A stretch of 42,041 nt of DNA from an uncultured Thermoanaerobaculia bacterium (GTDB lineage: Bacteria; Acidobacteriota; Thermoanaerobaculia; Multivoradales; CAZRFU01). A program made the position numbers and the translations under genes. The DNA lies in contig CAZRFU010000048.1 of the NCBI GenBank assembly GCA_964599475.1, forward strand, positions 1 through 42,041. The letters run 5' to 3'. How positions within the stretch are numbered: position 1 is the stretch's first letter; each line of letters begins with the position of its first letter. Of the stretch, positions 10 through 18,624 are shown in pieces. The notes beneath the pieces were generated by a model, which was given only the letters and a program-made list of their open reading frames with translations, was not told the DNA's origin and searched no databases.

Positions 10-98
10 CCTCCGTGGTGCACCCCGGAGGATGAAAATCAAGTCCGCCGTCCGGCCTCCGTTCCGGATCGGGTCCCGGGTCCCTGGTCCCGGGTCCC
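10..98. repeat. Intergenic repeat copy A: imperfect 22-nt palindrome CCTCCGTGGTGCACCCCGGAGG (10-31) and four tandem heptamers GGGTCCC/TGGTCCC (71-98), then ATTTTCT
   Basis: Read directly. Related copies at ~7928, ~12898, ~15468 and ~18570. The complementary strand gives four GGG tracts (G4 motif). Confidence 0.6.
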
Positions 99-135
99 AT
101 TTTCTGAGCAGAGTCGCTGCGCTACTCTTGTCCGA

Positions 136-888
136 GTGACGCACACTGGGCGGATACTGTTTCGGCGACTGCGGGTGGCTCTCCTGGCGGCGGCGGCAAG
201 CGCCGCCGCCGCCGGTGCCCAAGAAGGCGAGCCCGCCCCGATGCCAGCGCCGGGAGAGCTGGCGCGGGCCAAGGCCCTGATCGATGCGGGGCTGACCGGC
301 GCTGCCCGCATGCGCCTCGAGCCCCTGGTCGAGGCCCACCCAGCGTGGGCGCGCGCGCTCGGCCTGCTCGGGACCACCTACCTGAACGAGCGCCGCTACC
401 AGCTGGCAGTGTGGTGGTTCGAGCAAACACTGGCGGCCGATCCCGAGGAGCTCGCCGTGCGTCCGCTCCACGGCGTCGCCTTGTACGAGCTCGGGCGGCT
501 GGAAGAGGCGCGAGCGATGTTCGCATCGATCCTCGAGCGCCGGGCGAGCTTCGCTCCAGCGCACCTGTGGCTCGGCCGCATCGCCGCCGAGCTCGACCAC
601 ACCGAAGCCGCTCGTGATCACTTCGCCACCGCGATTCGCATTGCCGGCGCCGGCGTCGAGAGCACACTCGAGGCCGAAGCCCGGATGGGTCTCGCAGCGG
701 TCCTGCTGCGCCACGACCAGCTGGCCGCGGCCCGCGTCGAGCTCGAGCTCGCGGTCGCGCTCGACCCGGATCTGCGGGAGGCCTGGTTTCGCCTCGCCCA
801 CGTGGCGGCTCGCCTTGGCGACCCCGACGCCGCGGCCCGCGCCAGCGAGCGCGCCAGCGCGATCGACCCGCGGCAGCCTTCGCCATGA
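136..888 (+). CDS. Secreted tetratricopeptide (TPR) repeat protein
   Basis: GTG start. N-terminal signal-like segment (LLAAAASAAAAGAQ). Repeated Ala/Leu/Arg helical TPR-like units (…LGLLGTTYLNERRYQLAVWWFEQTLAADP…). Stop overlaps the next start (ATGA). Confidence 0.7.
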   Translation: MTHTGRILFRRLRVALLAAAASAAAAGAQEGEPAPMPAPGELARAKALIDAGLTGAARMRLEPLVEAHPAWARALGLLGTTYLNERRYQLAVWWFEQTLAADPEELAVRPLHGVALYELGRLEEARAMFASILERRASFAPAHLWLGRIAAELDHTEAARDHFATAIRIAGAGVESTLEAEARMGLAAVLLRHDQLAAARVELELAVALDPDLREAWFRLAHVAARLGDPDAAARASERASAIDPRQPSP

Positions 889-2582
889 GTCGCGGCCGCG
901 TGGTGCGAATCTCGATGCTGGCCCTGTGCTGGGATCTGCTCCCTGCCGTGGCCGAGCTGCGCTTCACGGCGATGCCTCCCTCGACCATCGACTTCGCGAT
1001 GACCAGCGGGGCCATGCCGAGTCGGCACATTCTGGAGGTCGACGGCGGTGGCGTCGCCCTCTTCGATTTCGACCGTGACGGCGACCTCGACGTCTTCCTC
1101 GCGAACGGCGCCGGCGTCGAACGGCCCGACCACGGCCCGGGCTCGCGGCTGTTCGCCAACCGCGGCAACTGGGTCTTCGAGGACGTCACCCGGAAGGTCG
1201 GCATCGACCTCACTCGTTGGGCGATGGGTGTCGCGGTGGGAGATGTCGACGGCGACGGCTGGGACGACCTCTACGTCACCTGCTTCGGCCCCAACGTGCT
1301 GCTGCGCAACGTCGAGGGCCGAACCTTCGAGGACTGGTCAACTCGCGCCGGCGTGGCGACGCCGGGCTGGTCGACGAGTGCTGCCTTCGCCGACCTCGAC
1401 GGCGACCTCGACCTCGATCTGGTCGTCGTCAACTACCTCACTTTCGACTCCGCCACACCTCCGGATCGGGCCGGGAAGGCCTACCGCGGTGTGCCAGTCA
1501 TGCCTGGCCCGATCGGTCTGCAGCCGGAGCCCGATCGGCTCTACGAGAACCTTGGCCAGGGACGATTTCGTGACGTCAGCAGTGCGGCTGGGCTGCGATC
1601 CAACGGCGCCGACTACGGTCTGGCGGTTCGTGTCTTCGACGCCGACGACGATGGGCGGCCCGAGATCTTCATCGGCAACGATTCGGGTGAAGACCAGCTC
1701 TACCGCAACCTCGGTGGAATGCGCTTCGACGAGGTCGGGGCGCTCGTCGGCATCGCGACAAGCGGCCGCGGTCTGCCGCAGGCGACCATGGGCACCGGCC
1801 TCGCGGATGTCGATGGCAACGGTCGCGTCGACCTCCTGATCACCGCCTTCTCGGACGACAGCAATACTCTGCACATGTCGCAAGCGGATGGGTTCTACGA
1901 GGACCGGACGGCAGCCTTCGGGCTGGCCGCACCCAGTCGGCCCCTGCTCGGATGGGGCGCCGGCTTCTACGACTTCGATCTCGACGGCGACGAGGACCTG
2001 CTCATCGCCAACGGCCACGTCTACCCCGAGATGGATCTTCCGGAGGTCGGCGAGCGCTGGGCCCAGCCGGTGCTGCTGTTCGAGCGCGAGGGCAGTCGCT
2101 TCCGTACGGCTTGTGCCGAAGCCTGGTGCAGCCAGCCGATCCACGGTCGCGCGACCGCCTTTGGTGATCTCGACGGCGACCTCGATGTCGATGTGGTAGT
2201 CACCACCCTCAACGGCCGACCGCTGCTGCTGCGCAACGACACCCCTGCGGGTCGTGCGCTCGTGGTGCGACTCTCTGCCCCGCCCCCGAACCGACACGGC
2301 TACGGCAGCGAAATCGAAGTGCTCAGCGCCGCCGGCACCCAACGCCGCTGGATCACCGGCGGAGGGAGTTTCCAGTCAGTCGATGCTCCCGAGGCCGTCT
2401 TCGGCCTGGCCTCACCCACCGAACCAGTAGCGATCCGCGTCCGCTGGCCGGACGGCACCGAGCAGCGGCTCGAGAACGTCTCCCCGAACCGCCTCGTCGT
2501 GATCACCAAACCCCCGCTCCGGTCTTCGCCTTCCTCCGAGCCCTCGACCCCTACCGCGCAATCTCCAACCCCGAACCCCTAA
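885..2582 (+). CDS. CRTAC1-family protein: FG-GAP/VCBS repeats with C-terminal ASPIC/UnbV domain
   Basis: Multiple DxDGDGxxD Ca-binding FG-GAP-like repeats (FDFDRDGDLDVFL, VGDVDGDGWDDLYV, ADLDGDLDLDLVVV). C-terminal block …GYGSEIEVLSAAGTQRRWITGGGSFQSVDAPEAVFGL…VRWPDG… is typical of the UnbV_ASPIC domain. Confidence 0.8.
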   Translation: MSRGRVVRISMLALCWDLLPAVAELRFTAMPPSTIDFAMTSGAMPSRHILEVDGGGVALFDFDRDGDLDVFLANGAGVERPDHGPGSRLFANRGNWVFEDVTRKVGIDLTRWAMGVAVGDVDGDGWDDLYVTCFGPNVLLRNVEGRTFEDWSTRAGVATPGWSTSAAFADLDGDLDLDLVVVNYLTFDSATPPDRAGKAYRGVPVMPGPIGLQPEPDRLYENLGQGRFRDVSSAAGLRSNGADYGLAVRVFDADDDGRPEIFIGNDSGEDQLYRNLGGMRFDEVGALVGIATSGRGLPQATMGTGLADVDGNGRVDLLITAFSDDSNTLHMSQADGFYEDRTAAFGLAAPSRPLLGWGAGFYDFDLDGDEDLLIANGHVYPEMDLPEVGERWAQPVLLFEREGSRFRTACAEAWCSQPIHGRATAFGDLDGDLDVDVVVTTLNGRPLLLRNDTPAGRALVVRLSAPPPNRHGYGSEIEVLSAAGTQRRWITGGGSFQSVDAPEAVFGLASPTEPVAIRVRWPDGTEQRLENVSPNRLVVITKPPLRSSPSSEPSTPTAQSPTPNP

Positions 2583-2597
2583 CACCCAACCCCTTCC

Positions 2598-4289
2598 CTA
2601 CGGGACCGTCGCCGACCACGCCGTAGTGTCGCCGGCTTCGAAGCCGTCGGCCAGCACCACCTCGGTCGGGATCGGCGCGAAGGTGCGGAACCGGACCAAC
2701 GGACTGACCGCCACTCCGCCCGCCGCTGCGGGATCGGTGACATACCAGCGGCCGAACCACTCCTTCCCGACAAGGCTCGAGTCCTCTGCGATAGCCACGC
2801 TGATCGATCCGAAACCCGCCCCGGCGCCGACCCCTCCGAGCACGGTGGTCTCGAACACCAACGCCGCCGAGACCGGAGGCAGAAGACCGGGGTCTTGGTC
2901 GTCGACCGCAAGCAGCGCAGAGGCTCCGCCGAGACTGTTCCACACCCCCACCGTAAAGCTCGGGTTGCCGACCAACGCCGGCTCGAGGGCGACCATCCGC
3001 GGCTCGTGTCCGCCGCTGCCGAGGATGCCCGTGCCCTGGACCGAGGGGACCCGTGGCGACTCGGTGTAGAGCCGAGGCCGGTCGAAAGGCGGCTGTTCGG
3101 CGGCGAGGCGTGGGTCGGTCAGCGGACGACCGAGAAACGCGATGAGGTCGGCCTTCTGCTGCGGCGTCAAGCCGAGGGGCGGTCCGAGCTCGTTGGGAGT
3201 GAAGTCGCCGCCGCGATCGTAAAACTCGACCACCTCGGTCAGGTTGATCAGCCGGCCGTTGTGCATGTAGGGCGCCCGCAGTGCGACGTTGCGCAGGCTT
3301 GGTGTGCGCATCTTGCCTTCGTCGGCTGCCAGGCCGGTGACCTCCGACCGGCCGATGTCGTCGGTCCTGGGGCGGACGCCGGTGTAGTGGAAGGCGTGGT
3401 CGCTCATGATCGCGAACTGGTGACAGTTGTCGCAACGCCCGACGCCCGCAAAAATCACCCGCCCGGAAGCCTCCTGAGGCGTCAACCCAGTGTTGGTTGC
3501 CAGGAACTGATCGAAAGGGGTCTGATTGGTGAACTGCGTGCGCTCGTAACTCGCGATCGCCATTGCCGCTCGCGTCGCGCTGATTCCGGGGCTCCCGAAA
3601 GCTTCCTCGAACAGCTCTGGATAGCTGCGCCCGTTGATCCAGATGCGCAACGGCGTCGGAATCGATGGAGCCAGGGCCAGCGGCCGGGCAGTCGCGATGC
3701 GATCGATGGTGGCGAGCCAGTCGCGGCCGACGTGCCCCATCTCGACCTCGTTGACGGGCGGACCGACGGCCTGGCTCTCGAGCGCCGCGCCAAAGGGCAG
3801 CTCGGTGACCATGGTCACCGGATCGACGAAGGCCTCACCCGCCCGCCCATCCCAGAACAACTCCGGGGAATAGCCGGCATTGATGGCTGAGACCGTCCGG
3901 CGCGGTGTCACCTGGGGCAGCAGTCCAAACGCCGTCTGCCAGGAGTAGCTGCCATCGGCGTGGTTCAGGGGCACCCCCGGCGACCCGAAAACATCATCCG
4001 GGCCGCCGAAGACACCGTCGGGTCCGGGATGAACGGCAAGCTGGCTCGCTCCTGAGCGGGGGTCGTCTCCCCCGGCCGCCGGGATATGACACGTGCCGCA
4101 CGACACCGTTCGCGTCGACGACAGCTGCTCGTCCCAGAACAAGACCTTCCCCAACAGCGCCTTGGAAGGGGTGACCGGGTTGCCCGGCGGCTCCGGCGGG
4201 GGAGGCAGCTGCGCGCCGGCGGCCGCCGCAAGCCCTGTCAGCGCCACGATCCAGAGGCGGCCTGCCGTCGTCTTCGAAGCACCTGCCAT
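2598..4289 (-). CDS. Di-heme cytochrome c peroxidase (CCP/MauG family) with ~150-aa C-terminal extension ending in the shared tail ...VVLADGFEAGDTTAWSATVP
   Basis: Two CxxCH haem motifs (CGTCH, CDNCH). Signal peptide MAGASKTTAGRLWIVALTGLAAAAGAQ from the internal ATG at 4289. AAGGA RBS on the minus strand. Convergent with the CRTAC1 gene, with only a 15-bp gap. Confidence 0.85.
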   Translation of the reverse strand: MAGASKTTAGRLWIVALTGLAAAAGAQLPPPPEPPGNPVTPSKALLGKVLFWDEQLSSTRTVSCGTCHIPAAGGDDPRSGASQLAVHPGPDGVFGGPDDVFGSPGVPLNHADGSYSWQTAFGLLPQVTPRRTVSAINAGYSPELFWDGRAGEAFVDPVTMVTELPFGAALESQAVGPPVNEVEMGHVGRDWLATIDRIATARPLALAPSIPTPLRIWINGRSYPELFEEAFGSPGISATRAAMAIASYERTQFTNQTPFDQFLATNTGLTPQEASGRVIFAGVGRCDNCHQFAIMSDHAFHYTGVRPRTDDIGRSEVTGLAADEGKMRTPSLRNVALRAPYMHNGRLINLTEVVEFYDRGGDFTPNELGPPLGLTPQQKADLIAFLGRPLTDPRLAAEQPPFDRPRLYTESPRVPSVQGTGILGSGGHEPRMVALEPALVGNPSFTVGVWNSLGGASALLAVDDQDPGLLPPVSAALVFETTVLGGVGAGAGFGSISVAIAEDSSLVGKEWFGRWYVTDPAAAGGVAVSPLVRFRTFAPIPTEVVLADGFEAGDTTAWSATVP

Positions 4290-4356
4290 GTCGATGGTCC
4301 TTTCTTGGTCACGAACCTCATATGCTACCCTCCGATGCTGCAGGAGCAATAGGGAC

Positions 4357-5751
4357 ATGGAATCGACCCGTCGCCGCCATCATTGCGCGCTGTGCCTGAC
4401 CTCGGCCCTGCTGGTCGCTGCACCGGCGGTGGCTGGCGACTGGATCACCTACGTCGACCAAACCGTCACGCGGCTGGTAGCCGACGCCAGCGTCGGCGTT
4501 TCGGACATCCGCGAGAAGGACTACGCCATCGGTGACCTCGATCGCGACGGCGATCTCGATCTAGTCGTGGTCCGCAAGATCCCGTTTACCAACCCGGGCG
4601 GCTTTCGGAACGTCTTGTTCATGAACGAAAACGGCGTGATGACCGACCGGGCGGCGACCCTGGCACCCGCGTTCCTCGACGCCACCGACGATCGCGACGT
4701 CGAAATCGTCGATGTCGACGCAGACGGGTGGCTCGATGTCATCACCGCCGGCACCTTCGAAGAGCAGCCGCGGATCCTGATGAACCTCGGGCGGGTCGCG
4801 GGCGTGTGGCAGGGCCTCGAGTACCAGCCCAATCGGCTCCCGGTTCTCACCTCACCGACCGGCAACGGTCCGAAATTCTGCGGCCTGGGAGTCGGCGACA
4901 TCACCGGCGATGGTCGCCCGGAGCTCTACTTCACCGACTACCAAAACGACCTCGAGGACCGGCTGCTGATCAACAACGGCGCCGGGTTCTTCTCCGATCA
5001 GACGGCGACACGCCTGACCGAAGCGATGGTCGATTCGACCTTCGGCACCGACGCCGACATCGTCGATGTCAACGGCGACGGTTTCAACGACATCGTCAAG
5101 AACAACGCCACTGGAGGGGGCACCGGGATTCCCGTGGCGCCCTCTCCGGAAGGCTCGATTTCCCCGAGCGTCATGGTGCTCTACAACGACGGCACCGGCC
5201 ACTTCTCGGTCTTCGACGTCGTCAACAACGATGCGCCCTACATGGTGGCCCCGGCCGACTTCAACCGGGACTCGCGCCTCGACCTGTTCGTCGTCGACGA
5301 CGCGCAGGATCGCTACCTGATCAACACCGGCAACAACGTCCAAGGGCGTGCCCAGTTCACGACGGCCCTGGTCAGCACCTCTCCCAACACCAGTTTCTTC
5401 GGCGGCAACACCGAGGTCGCGGACCTCAACGGCGACGGCTTGCTCGACATCCTGGTCGCCGATGTCGACACCGACGCCCCCGGCTGCGGCGGTCGCATGG
5501 TCGCCCTGCGCGGCCAGGGCAGCCCGCCGGCCGTGTCCTTCAGCGATCCCCTGGCCGGCGGCAGTCGCCCGTGGGCGCCACAAGGGACTCACGATGTCAA
5601 GGCCTTTCACATCGACGCCGACGGGCTCCCCGACCTCTTCATTGGCACCTGCTCCGGGACCAAGATCTTCATGAGCGTCAACCCGGACTTCCTCTTCGCG
5701 GACGGCTTGGAAAGCGGCGACACCACCGCCTGGAGCTCGACGGCGCCGTAG
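4357..5751 (+). CDS. FG-GAP/VCBS repeat beta-propeller protein ending in the shared tail ...FLFADGLESGDTTAWSSTAP
   Basis: ATG at 4357 preceded by GGAG. Signal peptide (HHCALCLTSALLVAAPAVAG). At least seven DxDxDGxxD repeats (DLDRDGDLDLVVV, VDVDADGWLDVI, DITGDGRPELYF, VDVNGDGFNDIV, ADLNGDGLLDILV, HIDADGLPDLFIG). Divergent from the peroxidase gene, 67-bp intergenic. Confidence 0.8.
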   Translation: MESTRRRHHCALCLTSALLVAAPAVAGDWITYVDQTVTRLVADASVGVSDIREKDYAIGDLDRDGDLDLVVVRKIPFTNPGGFRNVLFMNENGVMTDRAATLAPAFLDATDDRDVEIVDVDADGWLDVITAGTFEEQPRILMNLGRVAGVWQGLEYQPNRLPVLTSPTGNGPKFCGLGVGDITGDGRPELYFTDYQNDLEDRLLINNGAGFFSDQTATRLTEAMVDSTFGTDADIVDVNGDGFNDIVKNNATGGGTGIPVAPSPEGSISPSVMVLYNDGTGHFSVFDVVNNDAPYMVAPADFNRDSRLDLFVVDDAQDRYLINTGNNVQGRAQFTTALVSTSPNTSFFGGNTEVADLNGDGLLDILVADVDTDAPGCGGRMVALRGQGSPPAVSFSDPLAGGSRPWAPQGTHDVKAFHIDADGLPDLFIGTCSGTKIFMSVNPDFLFADGLESGDTTAWSSTAP

Positions 5752-5840
5752 TGAGGTGCAGGCTCCCACCCGCCCCGCTGGCCCCTTGTTCCCGCTACCC
5801 GATACCCCAAGTAGCCGGTTCGCCACTCGCAAATTGCCCC

Positions 5841-5869
5841 TTGACACATTGCGCGCCCCGTGGCACTAT
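5841..5869 (+). promoter_or_regulatory. Putative sigma70-type promoter: TTGACA (5841-5846), 17-nt spacer, extended -10-like TGgCACTAT
   Basis: Perfect -35 hexamer. The -10 is weak (CACTAT) but preceded by TG. Positioned ~25 nt upstream of the small ORF RBS. Confidence 0.4.
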
Positions 5870-5893
5870 CTCATTCTCTTCGGAGCAACGACT

Positions 5894-6022
5894 ATGAAGA
5901 CCTACCCACTGCATCTCGACCCCTCCAGGAGTGACCGCAACGGTTGCTTCGGTGGCCTGTTGCCCAGCTGCCCAAGCCGGCTGGACGACGCCCAAGATGC
6001 TCGCGGAGAAGGTTTTCCGTAA
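5894..6022 (+). CDS. Small 42-aa ORF (MKTYPLHLDPSRSDRNGCFGGLLPSCPSRLDDAQDARGEGFP) in a compact promoter-RBS-ORF-terminator unit; could instead be a non-coding sRNA
   Basis: GGAG is 8 nt upstream of the ATG. TAA stop. A strong hairpin terminator follows. Three Cys. No recognisable family. Confidence 0.35.
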   Translation: MKTYPLHLDPSRSDRNGCFGGLLPSCPSRLDDAQDARGEGFP

Positions 6023-6049
6023 CACCGCCGACAGCTCGGTGTGACGCTG

Positions 6050-6089
6050 AGGCCTTCCGCGACGGTGTCGCGGAAGGCCTTTTTGCTTG
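6050..6089 (+). terminator. Intrinsic terminator: 14-bp perfect stem AGGCCTTCCGCGAC/GTCGCGGAAGGCCT, short loop, then TTTT
   Basis: Read directly from the sequence. Confidence 0.65.
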
Positions 6090-6313
6090 TGGCCTACGTC
6101 GTAGCCGTGGACGCCGTCCATACAGGATACGTGTATCAATTCTGACCAGAAAGAAGCACCAATAGCGAAAGACTTACAAAGTTCGGCATCGGACCGACGG
6201 CACTTCAGCCACACGAGGCGCGCGCCGAGTGTGTTGCGGTGAGGTGTTCCGGGTACGGGTTCCGAGTGCGGTGTCGAAGCGGGACGCGGCTGGTGGCCGC
6301 CGCACCATGCGGT

Positions 6314-6338
6314 TGGGGTTCGATTCCCCGACGGCCCA
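6314..6338 (+). other. tRNA 3'-end-like fragment: T-arm hairpin (TGGGG-TTCGATT-CCCCG) plus 7-nt acceptor-like strand ACGGCCC; no D or anticodon arm
   Basis: Canonical TTCGAxT T-loop between GGGG/CCCC. Upstream GGCCGCC could pair with GACGGCC (6/7), giving a minihelix. It abuts the tRNA-like element. Confidence 0.3.
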
Positions 6339-6408
6339 ACGGATAGCTCAACGGTAGAGCACGAGACTGAGGATCTCGGTGTTGCGGGTTCGAATCCCGC
6401 TCCCCACT
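6337..6408 (+). tRNA. tRNA-like element, probably a pseudo-tRNA: anticodon loop CUGAGGA (GAG), 5-nt variable loop, but the 5' acceptor strand cannot pair with the 3' strand
   Basis: D arm TA-GCTC-AACGGTA-GAGC. Anticodon stem CGAGA/TCTCG. T arm GCGGG-TTCGAAT-CCCGC. The 3' strand TCCCCAC-T has no complement in the 5' position (CAACGGA). GAG would be Leu, but the variable arm is short, so this is atypical. A small hairpin plus T-run follows at 6411-6430. Confidence 0.4.
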
Positions 6409-6767
6409 CTGCAGCAGTAGCTGCCCTTTTCGACGCCGATCGGGAGCCGGTTCGCCCCGAGTGATCGTCCTCGGCTGAGGGTTCGCTCTCAGCTGAACGG
6501 CGATTCGGTCAGGACCCGACGGGTACGCCCGTCGAGGTCCAGCAGCCGCAACGGCCTCGAGCCCCGCCTCGCCTCGGCCAGACCGTGTGAGCCACCGTGC
6601 TCACCCGGAAGGTCGAGGAAGAGCGACGGCCCGCCACCAGCGCCTGTGACCCGCGGCAGAACCGGCTCCCGTGACGCATGCCGAACGACGAACGATCCCG
6701 CGCACGACGCTGCGCACAACCGGCGTGTGTCCACGCCACGACCCCTACGGGGAGGAAGGAGAAGGAG

Positions 6768-7871
6768 ATGAAGATCTTGTGGTTTCGGGTCGGTGCCTAC
6801 GAGCGGGCGTTGGTCTTCCGCGATGGCGCCCTGACCGAGGTGTTGGGGCCGGGCCTGCACCTGCGCGCTGCGCTGTTCGAGCAGCTCGAGGTCGAGACCT
6901 TTTCGGAGCGGTGGCCGTTCATCACCAGCGAGCGGCTCGACGTGATTGCGCGCTCGGGCCGGCTTGCCGCTGAGACCCGGCTGCTCGAGCTCGGCGACCG
7001 CGAGCGCGCCATCGTGCGTGTCGACGGGCGTTTGGCTCGGGTGCTCGGCCCGGGACGAACGATGCTCTGGACCGGCTTTGCGAAGGTCGAGGTCGAGGTG
7101 CTGGACGCCGGAGCAGTCCGGCTCGAGCGCAGCGATCTGAAGACCGTGCTCGCTCTCGAGGGTGCCCGTTCGTGGATCGAAGAGGTGGTCGTGCCGCAGG
7201 GCTCGATCGGCCTGGTCTACCTCGGCGGTGAAGTCCGCGAGGTGCTCCAGGCGGGTGCCTACGCCTTCTGGCGTGGGGTCGCCCACCTCGAGGTCAAGAC
7301 CGTCGACACTCGGCTCCAGGTGCTCGAGGTGGCGGGCCAGGATCTCCTGACCGCGGATCTGGTTTCGGTGCGTCTCAACGCCACGGCGATGGTGCGCATC
7401 AGCGACCCGGTCCGGGCTCTGGCGGCGGCAGAGTCTGCCACCCAGGCGCTCTACCGCGAGGCGCAGCTGGTGGTTCGTGCGGTGGTTGGCGCTCGCACCC
7501 TCGATCAGCTGTTGGCATCGAAGGTCGAGGTCGCCGGGGAGCTCGACACCGCGCTGCGGGCAAAGGCTTCGCTGCTCGGAATCGAGATCGAATCGTTCGG
7601 TATTCGCGACATCGTGTTGCCGGGCGAGATGAAGGCGATCATGAACCGGGTGACCGAGGCGCGCAAGGCGGCCGAGGCCAACCTCGTCACGCGCCGTGAG
7701 GAGACTGCGGCGATGCGTTCGCAGCTCAACACGGCGCGCCTGCTCGAGGGAAACCCGACGCTCATGCGTCTGCGCGAGCTCGAGGTGCTCGAGAAGGTGG
7801 CCGAGAAGACCAACCTCCAGGTCCTGCTCGGCGAAGGCCGCCTGACCGAGCGTGTCGTCAAGCTGATTTGA
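6768..7871 (+). CDS. SPFH/band-7 (stomatin/prohibitin-like) domain protein
   Basis: Strong RBS GGAGAAGGAGA before the ATG. SPFH-type sequence with a C-terminal coiled-coil (…GIRDIVLPGEMKAIMNRVTEARKAAEANLVTRREETAAMRSQ…). Confidence 0.85.
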   Translation: MKILWFRVGAYERALVFRDGALTEVLGPGLHLRAALFEQLEVETFSERWPFITSERLDVIARSGRLAAETRLLELGDRERAIVRVDGRLARVLGPGRTMLWTGFAKVEVEVLDAGAVRLERSDLKTVLALEGARSWIEEVVVPQGSIGLVYLGGEVREVLQAGAYAFWRGVAHLEVKTVDTRLQVLEVAGQDLLTADLVSVRLNATAMVRISDPVRALAAAESATQALYREAQLVVRAVVGARTLDQLLASKVEVAGELDTALRAKASLLGIEIESFGIRDIVLPGEMKAIMNRVTEARKAAEANLVTRREETAAMRSQLNTARLLEGNPTLMRLRELEVLEKVAEKTNLQVLLGEGRLTERVVKLI

Positions 7872-7875
7872 ACCG

Positions 7876-7910
7876 CCGGTCCACGATGGAGGTCGTGGAC
7901 CGGCATTTCT
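7876..7910 (+). terminator. Hairpin terminator after the SPFH gene: 11-bp perfect stem CCGGTCCACGA/TCGTGGACCGG, loop TGGAGG, then CATTTCT
   Basis: Begins 5 nt after the TGA. The U-tract is weak. Confidence 0.5.
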
Positions 7911-7927
7911 CCGGCAGTTGCGACGAA

Positions 7928-8011
7928 CCCTCCGTGGTACACCCCGGCCGGATGAGAACGGAGGCTTCGGTGCACCGCTACCAAGGTACCGGGTACCCGG
8001 TACCCTTGCAC
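7928..8011. repeat. Intergenic repeat copy B: box CCTCCGTGGTACACCCCGG..GGATGAGAACGGAGG, second GGTGCACC core, GGTACCN heptamers (7985-8011)
   Basis: Lies between the convergent SPFH and OsmC genes. Matches copies A, C, D and E. Confidence 0.55.
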
Positions 8012-9414: not shown

Positions 9415-9476
9415 CGGAGTCATGGCGACACCGTCTGCCTTCGGTCTTTTCGGATCCCGGATCTGATCCCTTGTCC

Positions 9477-10574: not shown

Positions 10575-10640
10575 GCCGAGCGGTATCGACCCGGCTACGG
10601 TCGCCAAGCTCACCGACTACGCACGCGCGGTGCACCGCGC
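10575..10640. promoter_or_regulatory. Upstream region of the 9477-10511 gene: two 14-nt direct repeats CGGT(T/A)TCGACCCGG and a perfect 16-nt palindrome GCGCGGTGCACCGCGC
   Basis: Read directly. The palindrome carries the GGTGCACC core shared with the repeat-family box. Confidence 0.3.
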
Positions 10641-11717: not shown

Positions 11718-11961
11718 CCCTTACTTTCGTCAGTGGTCGCCGGCGCGGGTCTGGGCGAAGCTGGGAGACGCAGGCGGTCGAGCCAGGTCCGCACTCCTGG
11801 GCTTCGCGCTCCTTGGCTCGATCGCCTGCGCCTGACTCGATGGCGAAGTGCCGGAGCTCGACCGGCACCCGCTCCGCGCCGCGCGCGACGAGCCCAACGA
11901 GCCCGACCCCCGCCCTGGAGGGTGGTGCCCCTGCGGGTCGGCTTGGCTGACACTTGATGGT

Positions 11962-12897
11962 ATGGACGGTCCCCTGCCCAAGGTCGGCGAGACCCCGCTG
12001 CTCGAGATCGAAGGCGTCTATGCCAAGCTCGAGTGCGTCAACCCGTGCGGGTCGATCAAAGACCGCGTAGCCCGCTACATCCTCGAAACCAGCCGCGAAC
12101 GCGGGCTCTTGGCACCGGGGCAGCGGATCGTCGAAGCCACCAGCGGCAACACCGGCATCGCGCTCGCCTACTTCGCACGCGAGCTCGGGCACCCGATCAC
12201 GGTGGTGATGCCGGAGAACATGACCGAGGAGCGCAAGGCGATGATCCGCGGCTTTGGCGCCGAGCTGGTCTTGTGCTCGGCCGAAGGGTCGTTTGCCGAG
12301 GCGGCGGCGATTCGGGATCGGCTGGCCGCCGAAAACGGCTGGTTCAACCCGGATCAGTTCTCGAACCCGCTCAACGCCGAGTGTCACGAACACACCACCG
12401 GTGCCGAGCTGGTCGCGCAACTCGGAGGGCGGGAGGTGGGAGCGTTCGTGGCCGGCGTCGGCACCGGCGGAACTCTGGTTGGCGTCGGCTCCGCGCTCAA
12501 GACGAGTTACCCCGACCTCCGGATCGTGGCCGTCGAACCCGAGGAATCTGCGGTGATGAGCGGCGGTGCACCGGGCGAGCATGGAATATCGGGTATCGGC
12601 GACGGCTTCGTTCCGGCGCTCGCGACCGACGGCGGCCACGGCTTGCACCCGCTGATCGACGAGGTCCTCTGCGTACCGACCACCGAAGCGGTGGCAGCGG
12701 CACAACGACTCGCGCGCGAGCATGGCGTTTGCGTCGGCGTTTCGTCGGGCGCCAACTTCGTCGCGGCACAACGCCTGCGACCGCGCTTCGGGGCGATCGC
12801 CACGGTCTTTGCCGACGGCTTCACCAAGTACCAGTCGCGTGGCCTGTTCCGGTGCGAGCCGGGTCGATGCCCGTACGAGCACGAGCTGGTCCGCTAG
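11962..12897 (+). CDS. cysK: Cysteine synthase (O-acetylserine sulfhydrylase, PLP-dependent)
   Basis: PLP-Lys motif (CVNPCGSIKDR), TSGNTG motif and GTGGT loop. Whether it is CysK or CysM is not resolved. Confidence 0.85.
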   Translation: MDGPLPKVGETPLLEIEGVYAKLECVNPCGSIKDRVARYILETSRERGLLAPGQRIVEATSGNTGIALAYFARELGHPITVVMPENMTEERKAMIRGFGAELVLCSAEGSFAEAAAIRDRLAAENGWFNPDQFSNPLNAECHEHTTGAELVAQLGGREVGAFVAGVGTGGTLVGVGSALKTSYPDLRIVAVEPEESAVMSGGAPGEHGISGIGDGFVPALATDGGHGLHPLIDEVLCVPTTEAVAAAQRLAREHGVCVGVSSGANFVAAQRLRPRFGAIATVFADGFTKYQSRGLFRCEPGRCPYEHELVR

Positions 12898-12990
12898 CAC
12901 CCCTCCGCGGCGCACCCGGTCGACCAAAGACCGGTCCCTGGTCCCTGGTCCCAGATCCCCAGCACGCGTTGCCCAGTACCCGGTAACCCG
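12898..12990. repeat. Intergenic repeat copy C: box variant CCTCCGCGGCGCACCCGG, heptamers GGTCCCT x3 (12931-12960), then CAGTACCCGGTAACCCG
   Basis: Immediately after the cysK TAG. The minus strand gives a G4 motif (GGGG ATCT GGG ACCA GGG ACCA GGG). Confidence 0.55.
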
Positions 12991-13059: not shown

Positions 13060-13431
13060 ATGTTCGGACGTTCGTCGCCTCGCCGCCTCACCCAACGTCG
13101 CCGATCCCACCGCCGGCGGTGGCGGGGACTGCTGCTCGCGGCACTGCTCACGCCGGCACTGGCCCAGGGCACCGATCTCCCTCCCGAGCCTGAGCTCGAG
13201 CCGGAGGGAACCACCGCCAGGCTCACCTTCACCATCGACTCGGGCGGCGGCACGTCGAGCTTCGGGACAACCGAGCTCACCGGCACCGTCGGCCAACCCG
13301 ATATTGGTGTCGCCACTGCCGGATCGATCGCGTTGATCGGCGGCTTCTGGGGCCGCGGCGTCCCCGATCACATCTTCACCGACGGCTTCGAGTCGGGCGA
13401 CTCGAGCGCCTGGTCGGCCACTGTCCCCTGA
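13060..13431 (+). CDS. Small secreted protein (~123 aa) ending in the shared tail ...[19 protein letters not shown]; upstream partner of the collagen-like gene
   Basis: GAGGAGGA RBS before the ATG at 13060. Arg-rich n-region plus hydrophobic signal ([17 protein letters not shown]). Gly/Thr-rich beta-like body. The stop lies 19 nt before the collagen-like gene start. Confidence 0.65.
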
Positions 13432-13450
13432 TCTCGTGGAGGAATCAACC

Positions 13451-15460
13451 ATGTCAGCTCGCCTCGCGTCCAGCCTGATGGCGCTTGCTCTTGCCCTGGT
13501 CACGGGCACCGGCATCGCCCAATCGACCAACTTCACCTACCAGGGCCGCCTGCTGCAAGGCAACACACCGGCCAACGGTCTGTTCGACTTCGAGTTTCGC
13601 GCCTTCGACGATCCTTCGGGCGGCAGCCAGGTGGGATTCGTCTCGACCCATCTGAACGTCGACGTCGACCGCGGGCAGCTGCAGGTCGTGGTCGACTTCG
13701 GCCCCGGGGTGTTTGTCGGTGACCCGCTGTGGATCGAAATTTCGATGCGCCCAGCAGGTGCCGGCCCGTACGACATCCTGAGCCCGCGCCAGCTGGTCAC
13801 GCCCGCACCTCTGGCGATCAACGCCGACACCGTCGACGGCTTGGATTCGACCGAGCTGCAGGGGCAAACCGGCCCAGCCGGCCCCCCCGGGCCGGTCGGC
13901 GCGCCCGGCATCGATGGCCTCGACGGCACCGCGGTGCTGCACGGCGCCGGGGTTCCGAGCGACGGCCTCGGCATCGACGGGGACTTCTTCCTCGATACCA
14001 CCTCCACGAGCCTCTGGGGCCCCAAGGCCGGCGGCACCTGGGTCGGATCCGGGCCGGTTGCCTTGATCGGTCCGACCGGCGCCCAAGGTCCGCCGGGGGC
14101 CACCGGTCCCGCAGGTCCGGCAGGCCCCCAGGGTGACACCGGCGCGACCGGTGCCACCGGTGCGACAGGCGCAACGGGAGCAACGGGTCCGCAGGGCATC
14201 CCCGGTCTCGACGGCCGCACCGTGCACTCCGATGCAGCCTCTCCAGGTGACGGCGTCGGCGCTGACGGCGACTTCTTCATCGACACCACCGGGCCGGCAC
14301 TCTGGGGCCCGAAGGCCTCCGGAACCTGGGCCGGCACCGGTCCGACCTCGATGGTTGGGCCAACCGGCGCGACGGGAGCCCAAGGTCCACAGGGTGATCC
14401 CGGTCCGCAGGGACCGATCGGCGCCACCGGGCCGCAGGGCGCCACCGGGCCACAGGGCGCGGTTGGTCCGCAGGGCCCTGCCGGGCCCCAGGGACTCCAA
14501 GGCGACGCCGGCCCAGCTGGACCGCAAGGTCCTGCGGGACCCCAGGGATCCCAGGGCGACCCCGGCCCAACCGGACCGCAGGGCCCCGCCGGCCCACAAG
14601 GGCTGCAAGGCGACACCGGCCCCGCCGGACCGCAAGGTGATCCCGGGATCCAAGGCCCTGCCGGCGCTACCGGCCCACAAGGTTCCGCCGGCCCCCAGGG
14701 AGACCCCGGCGCGACCGGAGCCCAAGGAGATCCCGGGCCGCCAGGGCCTCCCGGGGCACAAGGGCCGATGGGTCCGCAGGGGCCCCAGGGTGAACAAGGG
14801 ATCCAGGGCGAACCGGGCCCGGCCGGGCCCAGCGGCACCCCGGGTGGTGGCACCAACCGCGTGATCCGATGGAACGTCTTCAGCACCTACGACCAGAATG
14901 CCGGCTGGCTGGCCGCGAACAACGCCGACCTGTTCGGGGGCGTCAACCCGTCGAACTGGACCGACAACAACTACCGCGCCGACCAGATGAGCAGCAACAA
15001 GGACGTTCTACGCGCGCTGCTGACCCGCAAGGGGTACCCCGGCAACGACATGTTGCTGTACGCCGAAACCTGGGGCTACTACTCCTCGACCAACGGCCGG
15101 GTGGTGGTGGCGCTGGTGCGGATTCGCAACACCACCTTGGCGCCGATCGACTGGAACGTACGCTTCCACCACACCTGCTACCAGAACTGGAGCGAGCTTG
15201 CGAGCATCGCCGTCAATGGGGTCTTGCACTGGAGCTCCGCCCCACCGGCACTGAACTGCTCCTCGCAGACGCCGCTCAACACCACCATCTCGATCCCCGC
15301 CAACCGCACCAGCAGCGTGGTCTTCGTCTCGACCTCGAGCATACCGTCGGGCACCACCCGTTCGACCCTGATGGCCTTCTCGAACAACACTTTCCTGCTG
15401 CCGGCCGGGCTCGAGCTGGTCGACGACTTCGAAACCGCCACCGGAGGCTGGGAGCAGTAG
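13451..15460 (+). CDS. Secreted collagen-like triple-helix repeat protein with N-terminal FTYQGRL... domain and a sequon-rich C-terminal globular domain
   Basis: GGAGGA RBS before the ATG at 13451. Signal peptide. Three G-X-Y runs (~200 residues in total). Internal duplicate G(I/A)DGDFF(L/I)DTT...LWGPKA(G/S)GTW(V/A)G(S/T)GP. C-terminus [14 protein letters not shown] loosely resembles the shared tail. The C-terminal domain has many N-x-T/S. Confidence 0.85.
13860..14830 (+). repeat. GGN-rich collagen-encoding tandem repeats, including a perfect (GAT)5-coding run (~14139-14190)
   Basis: Read directly. Explains the long proline-rich antisense ORFs 13454..14797 and 13537..14886. Confidence 0.7.
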
Positions 15461-15467
15461 CGTCGAG

Positions 15468-15555
15468 CCGGTGGGTGCACCGGCGCGCTGATGGGGCCGG
15501 CGAGCGGCGCTGCAACCGGAGGGGACCGGGGACCGGGGACCAGGGACTTTTCCGG
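15468..15555. repeat. Intergenic repeat copy D: GGTGGGTGCACCGG near-palindrome, then GGAGGGGACC GGGGACC GGGGACC AGGGAC (G4 motif on + strand), then TTTTCC
   Basis: Immediately after the collagen-like gene TAG. Confidence 0.55.
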
Positions 15556-15754
15556 AGCGCGCATCCGCCGACACCAAGGTCCGCCCCGGGGGCTTCGATG
15601 AGGCCTCCGGGGTTCGCCTCAGGTGGCTTCCTGCTTGGTACACTCGTCGGGCCCGAGGCGGTCCGGCGACGGCCTCGAATGAGCCGGTGGGCGAGGGATC
15701 TTCGCCATTCCTCCCACACCGGCCTCGCCCGGCCACCACCATCAGGAGACCGCC

Positions 15755-17407
15755 TTGTCGACGTTGCGAGCCTCGCGCCTTCATCTCACCGCCTGCCTCC
15801 TTCTGACCGCCACCGGCACCGCGTCCTTTGCCGCAACCCTGGAGGCACCGCGCAAAGTCCAGGCAGGAGCCGAGATCACCGTGCAGTGGTCGGCCACCGT
15901 CGGCGAGGGGGACTTCATCAGCCTCGACCCTTCCGGCGCCCCCGACCACGAATACGGCGATTGGGTCTACCCCGGTGACGAGAGCACCGTCACCTTTCAG
16001 GCGCCGGGAGCTCCGGGCTCCTACGCGGTGCGCTACCACTCGGGTGGGGCCGGCTACAAAGTCTTGGCGACGGCACCGGTGGAGGTCGTCGCAGCCACCG
16101 CGACGGTGCGTGCGCCGGCGAGCGCAGCGGCTGGAGCCACGATCGAGGTTTCGTGGGACGGTCCCCTCAACCAGGGTGACTTCGTCAGCATCGACCCCGC
16201 CGGCGCCCCGGACCACGAGTACGGCGCCTACGTCTACGCCGACCGCGGCAATCCCGCCTCCTTGCCGGCACCCGACAGCGCCGGACCCTACGAAGTGCGC
16301 TATCACCTCGGCGCCAGTGGCTACGCCGTGATCGGATCGAGCCCCCTGACGGTCTCCGCCACCAGCGCCAGCGTCAAAGTCGCCACCCCCGTCGTGGCCG
16401 GCGAAACCTTCGAGGTTGCCTTTACCGGGCCCAACAACGAGAACGACTTCATCACCATCGTCCCCGAGGGCACTGCCGAGCGAGAGTACGGCAACTGGGC
16501 GGCGACTCGCCTCGGCAGCCCGGCGAAGCTCGAGGCGCCCAAACGAGCCGGTCGCTACGAGGTGCGCTACGCCACCGGCCAGGACTACCGCACGCTCGCG
16601 CGCGCCGCGGTCGAAGTGAGCCCTGGCCGACGCGGATCGCTGCGGGTGGTGGGCCGGACCGGCGGCACTGCGGCGACGGCTCCGGGAGCGGTCGAGGTGA
16701 TCCTCGACGCTTCGGGCAGCATGCTCCAGAAGATCGAAGGGACGCGGCGCATCGAGCTCGCCCGTGCTGCCCTGCTCGACCTGACCGGCTCGGCGCTCTC
16801 CGCCGGGACGCCTTTCGCCCTGCGCGTCTTCGGTCATCGCGAGGCCAACTCCTGTCGCACCGATCTCGAGCTGCCGCTCGCGGCGCTCGATCCGGCCAAG
16901 GCGTCCGCCACGATTGGGTCGATCGAGGCCAAGAACCTCGCCAAGACCCCAATCGCCGACTCCCTTCGGCGCGTGCGCGAGGACCTCGCCGCGGCTTCCG
17001 GGCGGCGAGTTGTGGTGCTGATCACCGACGGCGAGGAAACCTGCGGCGGCGACCCGGCCGCAGCGATCCGTGAGCTGCGCCAGGCAGGCATCGAGGTCGA
17101 GGTGTCGATCGTCGGTTTTGCCATCGACCAGCTGGCGCTCAAAGAACAGTTCCGCTCCTGGGCCAAGCTCGGTGGCGGGCTCTACCTCGATGCTGCCGAC
17201 GGCGAAGCGCTGCAGAAGGCGGTGCGCGGCGCGGTCGCGACGAGTTTCGATGTCGTTCAGGGCGGAAAGGTCATCACGACCGGGGCGGTCGGTGGCCCCG
17301 CGATTGACCTGCCGGCCGGAGGCTACGCGGTGCAAGTCGCCGGCCGGACCGTCGGCGAGGTGAGCATCGCCGCCGGCAAAGAAGTGGCGTTCACGCTGCC
17401 ACACTGA
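15755..17407 (+). CDS. Secreted VWA-domain protein with three tandem ~95-aa N-terminal repeat domains
   Basis: TTG start with a CAGGAGA RBS. Signal peptide. Three repeats carrying G(D/N)F(I/V)S(L/I)DPAGAPDHEYG...YEVRYH. C-terminal VWA fold with a DxSxS MIDAS motif (ILDASGSM) and ITDGEE. Confidence 0.8.
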   Translation: MSTLRASRLHLTACLLLTATGTASFAATLEAPRKVQAGAEITVQWSATVGEGDFISLDPSGAPDHEYGDWVYPGDESTVTFQAPGAPGSYAVRYHSGGAGYKVLATAPVEVVAATATVRAPASAAAGATIEVSWDGPLNQGDFVSIDPAGAPDHEYGAYVYADRGNPASLPAPDSAGPYEVRYHLGASGYAVIGSSPLTVSATSASVKVATPVVAGETFEVAFTGPNNENDFITIVPEGTAEREYGNWAATRLGSPAKLEAPKRAGRYEVRYATGQDYRTLARAAVEVSPGRRGSLRVVGRTGGTAATAPGAVEVILDASGSMLQKIEGTRRIELARAALLDLTGSALSAGTPFALRVFGHREANSCRTDLELPLAALDPAKASATIGSIEAKNLAKTPIADSLRRVREDLAAASGRRVVVLITDGEETCGGDPAAAIRELRQAGIEVEVSIVGFAIDQLALKEQFRSWAKLGGGLYLDAADGEALQKAVRGAVATSFDVVQGGKVITTGAVGGPAIDLPAGGYAVQVAGRTVGEVSIAAGKEVAFTLPH

Positions 17408-17677
17408 CGAATGACCGTCGCCCGGGCGCCCAGAAGCGCCGTCGCGTTTTCTGGGCATGGAGGGTGGAGGCTCGACGATCGCACCGTCGGCGGCTCGGCT
17501 GCGCTTGGCGGCCCGGCGCCGGGGCTGCGGCTGACGGCGGGTGCGTCGCGAAGAGGTGCGCGCGCAACGCGCACCCTGGGGCGCTCCCGCGGCCCGTACA
17601 TCAGAACGCCGGCCCGATTCTCCTCCTGCCGGGGTGCGTGTCGAAGGGCTGCCTGGGGCACCTGCTACGCTCCCAGG

Positions 17678-18196
17678 ATGGACCTGCGCTACCCGATAGG
17701 ACCCTACGACATCCACCATCGCCCGAGCGCGACGGAGCTCGATTCCGCCATCGAGGCGATCGGTCTGCTGCCGGCTGAGCTCGAGGCAGTCCTGGCCGAG
17801 CTCGAGCGTCGCCCGGCCGCACTCGACGCCCCATACCGTCCCGGCGGCTGGACCCGGCGGCAGGTGGTCCACCACTTGGCCGACAGCCACGCCAACGCCA
17901 CCATCCGCACTCGGCTCACACTGACCGAGGATGTGCCGACAGTCAAACCCTACGACGAGGTCGCCTGGGCCGAGCTCGTCGACGCGGCAACCGCCCAGAT
18001 CGAACCCTCGGTGCTGATGCTGCGGGGCATCCACCGGCGCTGGTCGATGTTGCTCGCGAGCCTCCCTGCGGCGGCCTTCGAGCGCCGCCTGCGGCACCCC
18101 GAGCACGGCGAGCTCACCCTCGCTCAGCTGATCGCCTCCTACGGCTGGCACTGTCGCCACCACCTTGCCCACCTCGGCAGCGCATGGGTGCCCTGA
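17678..18196 (+). CDS. DinB/YfiT-like putative metal-dependent hydrolase (DinB_2 superfamily)
   Basis: HHLADSHANATIR and HCRHHLAHL His motifs characteristic of DinB-like four-helix-bundle proteins. Confidence 0.7.
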   Translation: MDLRYPIGPYDIHHRPSATELDSAIEAIGLLPAELEAVLAELERRPAALDAPYRPGGWTRRQVVHHLADSHANATIRTRLTLTEDVPTVKPYDEVAWAELVDAATAQIEPSVLMLRGIHRRWSMLLASLPAAAFERRLRHPEHGELTLAQLIASYGWHCRHHLAHLGSAWVP

Positions 18197-18555
18197 TGGA
18201 TCCGATCGACATCGCCGCCAAACTCGCCGCCATCGACGACCACTGGAATCCGCGGGTGATCGCCGAGCTCAACGGCCAGCAGGTCAAGGCGGTCAAGTTC
18301 ATCGGCACCTTCGTCTGGCACGACCACACCGACGAGGACGAGCTCTTCCTGGTGGTCAAAGGCCGCTTCCGGATGGACTTCCGCGACCGTTCGGTGTGGA
18401 TCGAGCAGGGCCAGGCGATCGTCGTGCCACGCGGCGTCGAGCACCGACCCCACGCCGACGACGAGGTCGAAGTCCTGCTCTTCGAGCCCGCGAGCACGAT
18501 CAACACCGGCGAGGCCGACGACCCCCGCAGGCGCACCGAGCTCGAGCGGCTCTAG
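18196..18555 (+). CDS. Cupin-domain protein
   Basis: Small beta-barrel cupin motifs (…HDHTDEDELFLVVKGRF…AIVVPRGVEHRP). Start overlaps the previous stop (TGATG). Confidence 0.7.
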   Translation: MDPIDIAAKLAAIDDHWNPRVIAELNGQQVKAVKFIGTFVWHDHTDEDELFLVVKGRFRMDFRDRSVWIEQGQAIVVPRGVEHRPHADDEVEVLLFEPASTINTGEADDPRRRTELERL

Positions 18556-18569
18556 CAGTTGCCCATGCA

Positions 18570-18624
18570 CCTTCGTGGTGCACCCCGGGGGATCAAGAAT
18601 CGAATTCCGTAGTACCCGGTACCC
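18570..18624. repeat. Intergenic repeat copy E: box CCTTCGTGGTGCACCCCGGGGG, then GATCAAGAATCGAATTCC, then GTAGTACCCGGTACCC
   Basis: Starts 15 nt after the cupin TAG. Near-identical to copy A's box. Confidence 0.55.

Follow-up and report, generated by a model that had tools for sequence, protein, structure and literature searches.

A modular, clade-restricted intergenic repeat family with embedded heptamer arrays in a Thermoanaerobaculia-like lineage of Acidobacteriota

Several families of short intergenic repeats described in bacteria resemble, each in part, the element reported here. BOX of Streptococcus pneumoniae is a modular intergenic element, boxA-(boxB)n-boxC, in which conserved ends enclose variable internal tandem units of 45 nucleotides (nt); it folds into stable hairpins, and no transposase of its own is known. 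Cyanobacterial STRR heptamers are lineage-specific intergenic tandem heptamers. Repeats of the same length, the TAACTGA direct repeats of Beggiatoaceae, have been described as lineage-specific and intergenic with a patchy distribution (MacGregor 2015, PMC4679880), and the heptamers GGGAATC of Xanthomonas and GGGGAYT of Nostoc are of the G-quadruplex (G4) type (Rehm 2015, PLoS One, PMC4692102). We describe here a clade-restricted, modular, non-coding intergenic repeat family in a Thermoanaerobaculia-like lineage of the Acidobacteriota, as it occurs in a 42,041-nt stretch of DNA from an uncultured bacterium (contig CAZRFU010000048.1, positions 1 to 42,041; hereafter the window) and in contigs of its relatives. 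Each full copy joins a palindromic head to a short tandem array of heptamers and a short tail, and individual copies are designated by letters (Table 1), with primes for the copies at corresponding sites of a relative represented by the contigs L080-82.

Anatomy of the repeat unit and its described counterparts

Alignment of the window copies with those of relatives resolves a unit of ~85-130 nt into four modules, namely head, linker, heptamer array and tail. The head consists of (T[G]AG)CAGTTGCCCATGCACC followed by a 22-nt box, the imperfect palindrome CCTCCGTGGTGCACCCCGGRGG; the linker is purine-rich, GATGARAATC; the array usually comprises three to five heptamers of the form GGG-N4 or N4-CCC (GGGTCCC, GGTACCC, GATACCC, GGGGACC and others); and the tail is pyrimidine-rich, ATTTYCTGAGCAG or TTYCGGAGCGC. 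An optional spacer between linker and array occurs in two subtypes, CCGCCGTCCGGCCTCCGTTCCGGATC (in A and in L091a, a unit of the relative's contig L091) and GTGCACCGCTNNCAAG (in B, B' and A'). The most strongly conserved stretch is GCACCCCGG-N(1-3)-GATGARAATC, rather than the palindrome as such. Most heptamers are a palindromic hexamer core plus one base (GGTACC+C, GGATCC+G, GGGTCCC), so that the arrays are self-complementary and hairpins can fold on either strand. Units also occur head to tail, as at the tail-to-head junction ATTTTTCTGAGCAGTTCCCCATGCACCCCTCC in L091.

An earlier note, made from the letters of the window, had listed at least five copies (A to E) sharing the 22-nt palindrome. 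Scanning the window for the box, CCTCCGTGGTGCACCCCGGAGG, with up to three mismatches recovers three of these, in A (10-31, no mismatch), E (18570-18591, two) and B (7929-7950, three), with a chance expectation of zero in 100 shuffles. The box of C, CCTCCGCGGCGCACCC-GGTCGA, is well diverged and contains an indel, and D has instead a hairpin, GCCGGTGGGTGCACCGGC, with only the GGTGCACC octamer in common with the family box. D gave no match to a profile trained on A, B, C, E and the copy of a further relative, L023, and is counted in the family by its module order (hairpin, GATG, array, tail TTTTCCGGAGCGC) and not by its box; its tail motif CCGGAGCGC is also present in A', B' and the L091 copies. 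The profile scores of A, B, C and E (E = 1e-17 to 1e-22) are those of training members and hence not independent. Two copies add to the five listed: F, a decayed remnant at 5752-5830, and, as a weak candidate, the degenerate reversed copy G at 17604-17668. Copies start 0-58 nt past a stop codon, in agreement with the ~60 nt originally put forward. The octamer is found seven times in the window against 1.35 expected, five of the seven being intergenic. One of its occurrences lies in a palindrome near 10620 that had been thought related; the palindrome is there, and perfect, but it shares the octamer only and the profile does not place it in the family.

The tandem period-7 arrays noticed at the outset are recovered by Tandem Repeats Finder at 70-98, 2565-2593, 7985-8005, 9385-9413, 12933-12959 and 15521-15547; by the same program, arrays measure 2.9-4.1 units in the window and mostly 3-5.6 in relatives, where one reaches 8.9. 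Canonical G4 motifs, defined by a regular expression for four tracts of at least three G with loops of 1-7, number 13 in the window against 5.9 +/- 2.3 in Markov-1 simulations. Six are intergenic, and none of these lies beyond the first 18.6 kb: four belong to the minus strand (75-98, 2576-2598, 5782-5808, 12936-12960), the other two (9385-9408, 15521-15545) to the plus strand. The strand assignments of the earlier note (G-rich strand plus in D and at 9383-9414, minus in A and C) thus hold, and so does its description of the arrays as G4-prone for these four, but not for the arrays of B and E (GGTACCC), which have no four G3 tracts.

By their sequence, the window arrays match the known class of G4-type heptamer repeats, B and E without its four G-tracts. 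The points of likeness are tandem GGG-N4 heptamers with a mode of about four units, and a strongly intergenic location near the stop of a neighbouring open reading frame (ORF), with frequent inverted pairs (PMC4692102); length and sequence vary at the same site between close relatives, without a link to gene function, in both. The facing arrays at 9383-9476 match the arrangement described as 'inverted repeats' in Xanthomonas (PMC4692102). Here, however, the unit varies by array (GGGTCCC, GGTACCC, GATACCC, GGGGACC, GGGATCC) with no single consensus, a palindromic hexamer forms the core of most units, and many arrays lie inside a head-linker-tail unit that is not described in the published study (PMC4692102); the phylum, moreover, is Acidobacteriota. 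The TAACTGA repeats are A/T-rich and lie just upstream of start codons (PMC4679880), whereas the present arrays are G/C-rich, self-complementary and mostly just past stops. The four-unit G-rich heptamer class is thereby extended from Xanthomonas and cyanobacteria to an uncultured lineage of Acidobacteriota, and the embedding of arrays in a larger conserved unit offers a handle on their seeding and spread, a matter left open by published work.

In architecture, the closest analogy is pneumococcal BOX, from which the present family differs in having no sequence relation to it, an internal unit of 7 rather than 45 nt, and another phylum and base composition. A dispersed set of the REP/BIME or MITE kind had been suggested at first, and as to kind the suggestion stands, given the non-orthologous copies in L023 and L091, the decay and turnover of copies and the assembly breaks documented below. 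REP, BIME and REPIN elements of proteobacteria are likewise short imperfect palindromes, dense in intergenic DNA and typically just past stops, that form mosaics with other short motifs and undergo decay and turnover between relatives (Bertels & Rainey 2011, PMC3116915; Di Nocera et al. 2013, PMC3733652). A repeated intergenic palindrome of the REP size, 20-40 nt, is present as the 22-nt box of A, B, E and L023, degenerate elsewhere. Nothing observed establishes membership in these families: by eye, the GTAG/CGTC tag of REPs (PMC3733652) does not stand beside the box in A, E or L023, where the flanks are ...CATGCACC and GATGA..., the copies are single or in direct tandem and not inverted doublets as in REPINs, which are associated with a RAYT (Y1/HUH) gene, and neither a transposase in the window nor recognised inverted ends were found. 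REPs, for their part, carry no heptamer arrays and number tens to hundreds per genome. As regards MITEs, the two ends of the element, CAGTTGCC on the left and CTGAGCAG on the right, show no complementarity by eye, the boundaries being approximate.

Distribution and turnover among relatives

A scan of 185,579 species genomes for the box returned 66 stretches and a single true copy, L023. The large majority of the 66 represent one conserved coding motif, and most of the others also look coding and unrelated. In reverse complement, the 19-nt core of the box, CCTCCGTGGTGCACCCCGG, equals a coding motif (...PGCTTEA...) that is very widely conserved across bacteria and archaea and that we read as belonging to Bcp-type peroxiredoxins; this match sets a trap for motif searches with the box. 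A metagenome scan for box plus linker gave nine matches, all apparently unrelated coding sequence, and a scan of viral contigs gave two, both chance. L023 (JAGQPW010000364.1) is a contig of 692 nt labelled Planctomycetaceae, in which the copy adjoins a TlpA gene. The named, more distant homologues of this TlpA are from Thermoanaerobaculia, and the contig has probably been mis-binned under the wrong phylum, for which the repeat family would account. Its copy and copy E are 83% identical over 84 nt, and their flanking genes are unrelated; in these two copies, as in A, the box comes close to a perfect palindrome.

Contigs of further relatives (L076 onward) were fetched through homologous proteins, and they document both persistence and turnover. 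Copy E is identical in a strain-level contig, L076. In L077, whose purL is 96% identical, copy D is identical and copy E is absent, its site being occupied by a 4.7-kb three-gene segment (window 18552-18692 versus L077 4176-8908). This segment encodes a peptidase S8 and the products of two unknown genes, and the site is also a mosaic breakpoint, with identity between L077 and the window dropping from 98.7%, which holds as far as the final codon of the cupin gene, to 86% from 18693 onward. In the contigs L080-82 (SPFH 96% identical in amino acids; DNA identity 84-91%), the sites of A, F and B are occupied by units in which heptamer sequence and copy number differ from those of the window: F, decayed in the window, is a full copy in L080 at 6375-6460, and A and A', at the same site, defy alignment and are built from different heptamers. 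At greater distance, L083 (SPFH 75% identical) is without copy B, and other arrays and a reversed TTCTGAGCA motif are present. L091, with a TlpA 80% identical to that of L023, is densely occupied: over 10.6 kb, most of the spaces between its genes contain arrays or units. One of its units carries the specific spacer of copy A, and from box to spacer copy A is ~80% identical (by eye on the alignment) to the non-orthologous stretch 9806-9900 of L091. No copies were found in L101, L102 and L105, at 66-71% marker-protein identity.

Nine independent Logan contigs end at the identical base inside a head, 146 nt past the TlpA stop, and L080 and L081 end inside B'. Breaks of assemblies inside copies are a signature of sequence repeated in the genome, and together with the high local density they suggest many copies per genome. 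The family thus breaks short-read assemblies of these genomes, and its copies might serve as a strain-typing marker.

Constraint, mode of spread and alternative readings

Comparison of constraint covers one orthologous pair, B and B'. These are ~76-82% identical, with different arrays, while third codon positions of the SPFH gene are 87% identical and the terminator hairpin of that gene, beside B, is nearly unchanged in the relative (one substitution and one indel). Change in copy B is therefore no slower than at synonymous sites, and the copy shows no constraint. The octamer is lost in the ortholog, GGTACACC/GGTGCACC of B corresponding to GGAACACC/CATGCACC in B', and A' has GGAGCACC. The divergence and the loss of the octamer together speak against both an operator function and purifying selection at copy B. 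A conserved box hairpin was likewise rejected, RNAalifold finding no consensus pairs over 12 heads.

We lean, if only slightly, towards regarding the family as a near-neutral or selfish repeat of the REP/BIME/BOX-like kind, with slippage-prone arrays and incidental terminator-like hairpins. The unit has spread to many intergenic sites at gene ends, presumably by a copy-and-paste or recombinational process. The route that seems to fit best would be a single-strand, hairpin-recognising one of the HUH/Y1 type (REP- or IS200/IS605-like), favoured by the hairpin head and by the lack of recognisable inverted ends or target duplications. Once established, the heptamer tract would expand, contract and homogenise locally through slipped-strand mispairing, leaving units uniform within an array and different between arrays and between relatives; this signature and the habit of four units agree with the published heptamer class (PMC4692102). 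Copies would survive at sites that tolerate an insertion, immediately after stop codons, and decay later. Two or more units with a palindromic hexamer (GGTACC, GGATCC, GGGNCCC) could fold a G+C-rich hairpin followed by a U/pyrimidine tail, and a transcribed copy would then resemble a weak intrinsic terminator or an obstacle to 3' exonucleases, a behaviour that we regard as a by-product and not as the selected function of each copy. The comparisons demonstrate the family, its modules, its occurrence across loci and genomes, its turnover and the absence of constraint at copy B; mode of spread, slippage and terminator-like behaviour are inferred.

Several observations weigh against a near-neutral, mobile repeat. 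By eye there are no terminal inverted repeats or target-site duplications (none is visible at the boundaries of E, A and F in comparison with L077 and L080), no clean empty site turned up, and the proteins encoded in the window include no transposase, so that mobility is deduced from distribution alone. In at least two genomes, the heads of the young-looking copies A, E and L023 have stayed nearly identical, which could reflect selection on a subset. The heads of C, E and F' abut the upstream stop exactly and TAG is over-represented, a hint of some connection with translation or with the ends of transcripts; TAG ends 7 of 8 element-bearing genes against 7 of 24 others, an excess that is confounded, since overlapping genes inside operons typically end in TGA. 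Finally, between B and B' three positions of an 8-bp stem have changed on both arms with pairing kept, which could result from selection for a hairpin or from quasi-palindrome template switching.

A function as a selected portable terminator or stabiliser of 3' untranslated regions, in which hairpins and U/pyrimidine tail would terminate transcription or block 3' exonucleases, we consider rather unlikely. The likeness to intrinsic terminators extends to a G+C-rich hairpin, a U/pyrimidine tract, sometimes an upstream purine complement, and a position 0-58 nt after stop codons. Hairpins are predicted for array regions, but only the array and tail of copy A, where a hairpin is followed by AUUUUCU, pass a terminator scan; the U-tracts of most copies are poor, those other than A ending with 2-4 U in the tail. 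B lies behind the separate, conserved terminator hairpin of the SPFH gene and evolves at or above the synonymous rate, and the organism has canonical terminators elsewhere in the window (6049-6091 and ~36560). Between co-directional genes, six loci are in sense and two in antisense orientation, a bias in the direction that a terminator would call for but not a significant one. The purine linker might also pair with the tail, much as A- and U-tracts do in a bidirectional terminator: by eye, linker GGRGGAUG and tail CAUYUYCY form a stem in A, E, L023 and L091c, where some changes look compensatory, and its many G-U pairs restrict this stem to the sense strand. In an alignment of eight copies, however, this stem is 75% paired in register and 42-56% when slid, against 73% in column shuffles, so that the pairing reflects purine/pyrimidine composition and not covariation. 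Rfam gave no match at the gathering threshold for the element in the window, and none at E <= 1 in L023, L076 and L082.

A bolder version of mobility seems to us unlikely, in which the unit would be a novel kind of mobile element, active but non-autonomous. It would insert exactly at the ends of coding sequences through a hairpin-recognising single-strand mechanism, bring its own stop (T[G]AGCAG...) and a self-expanding tract able to form hairpins or G4, and act as a portable transcript-end module in Thermoanaerobaculia-like bacteria.

It also seems unlikely to us that the four-tract arrays, folded in DNA or RNA into G4 or, on the C-rich strand, into i-motifs, act near gene ends on transcription, translation or replication, although a regulatory G4 role has been proposed for the GGGAATC and GGGGAYT repeats (PMC4692102). 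The excess of motifs, six of them intergenic, the clustering of arrays at about four units and the occurrence of inverted pairs all conform to such a role. Yet the arrays of B, E and many in relatives (GGTACCC, GATACCC) have no four G3 tracts, the G-rich strand is sense at some loci and antisense at others, and every G-tract in an array has its C-tract complement, so that hairpins compete. The published study itself identified no function (PMC4692102), and a G4 role leaves the conserved head, linker and tail unexplained. The present evidence reveals no new regulatory mechanism.

It is very improbable that the copies are regulon or architectural sites of a dimeric regulator or nucleoid protein binding the GGTGCACC-centred palindrome, as the earlier note had considered. 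The surplus of octamers, mostly intergenic, and the near-perfect palindromes of A, E and L023 would suit such a protein; the octamer is nonetheless lost at both B' positions and in A', most boxes lie 3' of stop codons and not in promoter regions, and the genes beside the copies are unrelated in function. That the copies are alike by chance, or arose by local duplication alone within 18 kb, might be suggested by the confinement of window copies to the first 18.6 kb. This reading can be set aside almost entirely, since no chance box matches are expected, the second half of the window is short of intergenic DNA, and copies recur in other genomes at unrelated loci, those of L023 and L091 already refuting it. 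The earlier note had named absence of the box elsewhere as grounds for refutation; its occurrence in other genomes answers that objection.

Several further candidates were tried and rejected. A small ORF from the linker ATG fails because this ATG is missing from E, the reading frame changes with the number of heptamers, and the spacing from Shine-Dalgarno sequence to ATG is zero; a sigma-54, sigma-70 or extracytoplasmic-function sigma promoter in head and tail is at odds with the hexamers, the spacing and the variable array length. The motifs of a C/D-box or kink-turn (GATGA...CTGA) are not conserved, E having GATCA and CCGA, and a hammerhead-like core gave no match. Integron attC sites would not explain copies without RYYYAAC/GTTRRRY core sites (by eye), spaced 2.5-8 kb apart among genes on both strands, with housekeeping pur genes following copy E.

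The window, its copies and its genes

The host of the window is an uncultured soil-type bacterium of the Thermoanaerobaculia-like lineage. The closest homologue of its PurL is 96% identical (Joint Genome Institute metagenomes), the next best ~70%, and the named ones come from Thermoanaerobaculia or Acidobacteriota. Close relatives are present in the Joint Genome Institute samples 3300048838/39 and 3300048591/92. G+C content is 68.7%, and the GC skew of the window, weakly negative throughout, gives no information on replication direction. The gene map in Table 1 is based on Pfam scans and on frame analysis by G+C at third codon positions (GC3). By profile, the second half of the window has no copies; it consists mostly of tightly packed operons with little intergenic DNA.

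Table 1. Repeat copies, arrays and genes of the window
Feature	Position	Strand	Details
Copy A	1-111	+	Left side cut by window edge; head and box 10-31, linker ATGAAAATC 32-40, 30-nt spacer 41-70, (GGGTCCC)x4 array 71-98, tail ATTTTCTGAGCAG 99-111; minus-strand G4 75-98; array and tail terminator-like in scan
TPR gene	136-888	+	
FG-GAP/ASPIC gene	885-2582	+	
Headless heptamer array	2565-2598	-	Plus strand CCAACCC-type; minus-strand G4 2576-2598
Di-haem cytochrome c peroxidase gene	2598-4358	-	
Second FG-GAP gene	end at 5751	+	
Copy F, decayed	5752-5830	+	Right after TAG stop of second FG-GAP gene; weak profile match, E = 0.5; retains GGTGCAGG..., GCTACCC GATACCC and minus-strand G4 5782-5808
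SPFH gene	6678-7871	+	
Copy B	7914-8011	+	Between convergent genes; GCAGTTGC head 7914-7928, box 7929-7950, GATGAGAAC 7951-7959, second arm ACGGAGGCTTCGGTGCACC 7958-7976, array GGTACCG GGTACCC GGTACCC 7985-8005
OsmC-like gene	from 8059	-	
SDR gene	8552-9382	+	
Inverted pair of headless arrays	9383-9476	.	GGGATCC GGGACTC GGGAGCC GGGATCC (9385-9413, plus) faces CGGATCCCGGATCTGATCCCTTGTCCC (9450-9476)
Gene without named function	9477-10613	-	
Palindrome, non-member	10622-10637	.	Perfect, GCGCGGTGCACCGCGC; downstream of minus-strand rhodanese gene
Rhodanese gene	10675-11217	-	
TspO gene	end at 11717	+	
PALP enzyme gene	11848-12897	+	
Copy C, diverged	12895-12989	+	Starts at PALP gene TAG stop; E = 8e-17 as training member; TAGCACCCCTCCGCGGCGCACCCGGTCGACC, then GGTCCCT x3 and GATCCCC (12933-12959), GTACCCGGTAACCC (12976-12989); minus-strand G4 12936-12960
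Small ORF	13061-13336	+	
Collagen-like gene	13436-15460	+	
Copy D, variant	15467-15563	+	Member by module order, not box; hairpin GCCGGTGGGTGCACCGGC 15467-15484, GCGCTGATGGGG, (GGGGACC)x4 15521-15547, tail TTTTCCGGAGCGCGC 15548-15563; G-rich strand plus
VWA gene	15755-17407	+	
Copy G, degenerate, reversed	17604-17668	-	TAGCAGGTGCCCCAGGCAGCCCTTCGACACGCACCCCGGCAGGAGGAGAATCGG...TTCTGA, no array; E = 0.003
DinB gene	~17672-18196	+	
Cupin gene	18184-18555	+	
Copy E	18553-18637	+	Starts at cupin gene TAG stop, TAGCAGTTGCCCATGCACC; box 18570-18591, linker ATCAAGAATC 18592-18601, array GTACCCGGTACCC 18612-18624, tail ATCTTCCGAGCAG 18625-18637
purS, purQ, purL, purF, purM, purN, then further operons	downstream of cupin gene		

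The settings of individual copies are varied. Copy A ends 25 nt upstream of the TPR start and its G4 lies 38 nt upstream of it, in antisense. The array at 2565-2598 overlaps the convergent stop codons of the FG-GAP/ASPIC and cytochrome c peroxidase genes, with its G4 on the sense strand, and has an orthologous array in L080 at 3190-3227. Copy B sits 3' of the hairpin of the SPFH gene itself (7875-7903, then CATTTCTCC). In the inverted pair, each G-rich arm lies directly 3' of the stop of one of the two convergent genes, on the sense strand, the array at 9385 beginning 3 nt past its stop codon. The array of C is ~100 nt upstream of the next ORF, that of D is 61 nt from the stop codon, and the downstream neighbour of E is purS at ~18795.

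The DinB gene is overstated by a long ORF, 17411-18196. The gene call in L077 starts at the equivalent of ~17672, which makes 17408-17671 (~265 nt) the intergenic region between the VWA and DinB genes. Copy G, in this region, appears to be a weak family member and could be a chance match. It is adjoined by a further repeat of ~100 nt (CTCTGATGTACGGGCYGCGG...GCGCGTTGCGCGC), found at 17509-17610 on the minus strand and in L077 at 4574-4676 on the plus strand, two different intergenic sites, with 85% identity.

Among the genes, the collagen-like one (13436-15460) encodes 674 amino acids with long G-X-Y repeats (Pfam Collagen, 1.7e-36) and is the source of most coding tandem repeats and of several coding G4 motifs. 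On the minus strand, 37454-39700 encodes a pyridine nucleotide-disulphide oxidoreductase domain fused to AIRS/AIRS_C domains; the product looks like a fusion of the SelD-type selenophosphate synthetase, Pfam itself reporting AIRS domains only.

Two further regions follow copy F. At 6288-6403 (also in L080 at ~6930-7050 and in L082 at 1304-1421) lie two neighbouring tRNA-like modules, the first (6288-6336) a weak mascRNA-like cloverleaf of 24 bits and the second (6341-6403) an Rfam tRNA match of 54 bits over model positions 5-66. In the second, only 3 bp of the acceptor stem pair and ARAGORN made no call; it is kept in the relative, but with an anticodon loop of CUGAGGA versus CUGGAAA. At 5843-6095 lies a compact unit, conserved in L080, that starts from a TTGACA...CACTAT promoter-like pair, has in its middle ~200 nt that are a candidate small RNA or an ORF of ~40 codons, and ends in a strong canonical terminator (hairpin 6049-6081 and TTTTTGCTTG), followed by a low-GC patch at 6120-6180.

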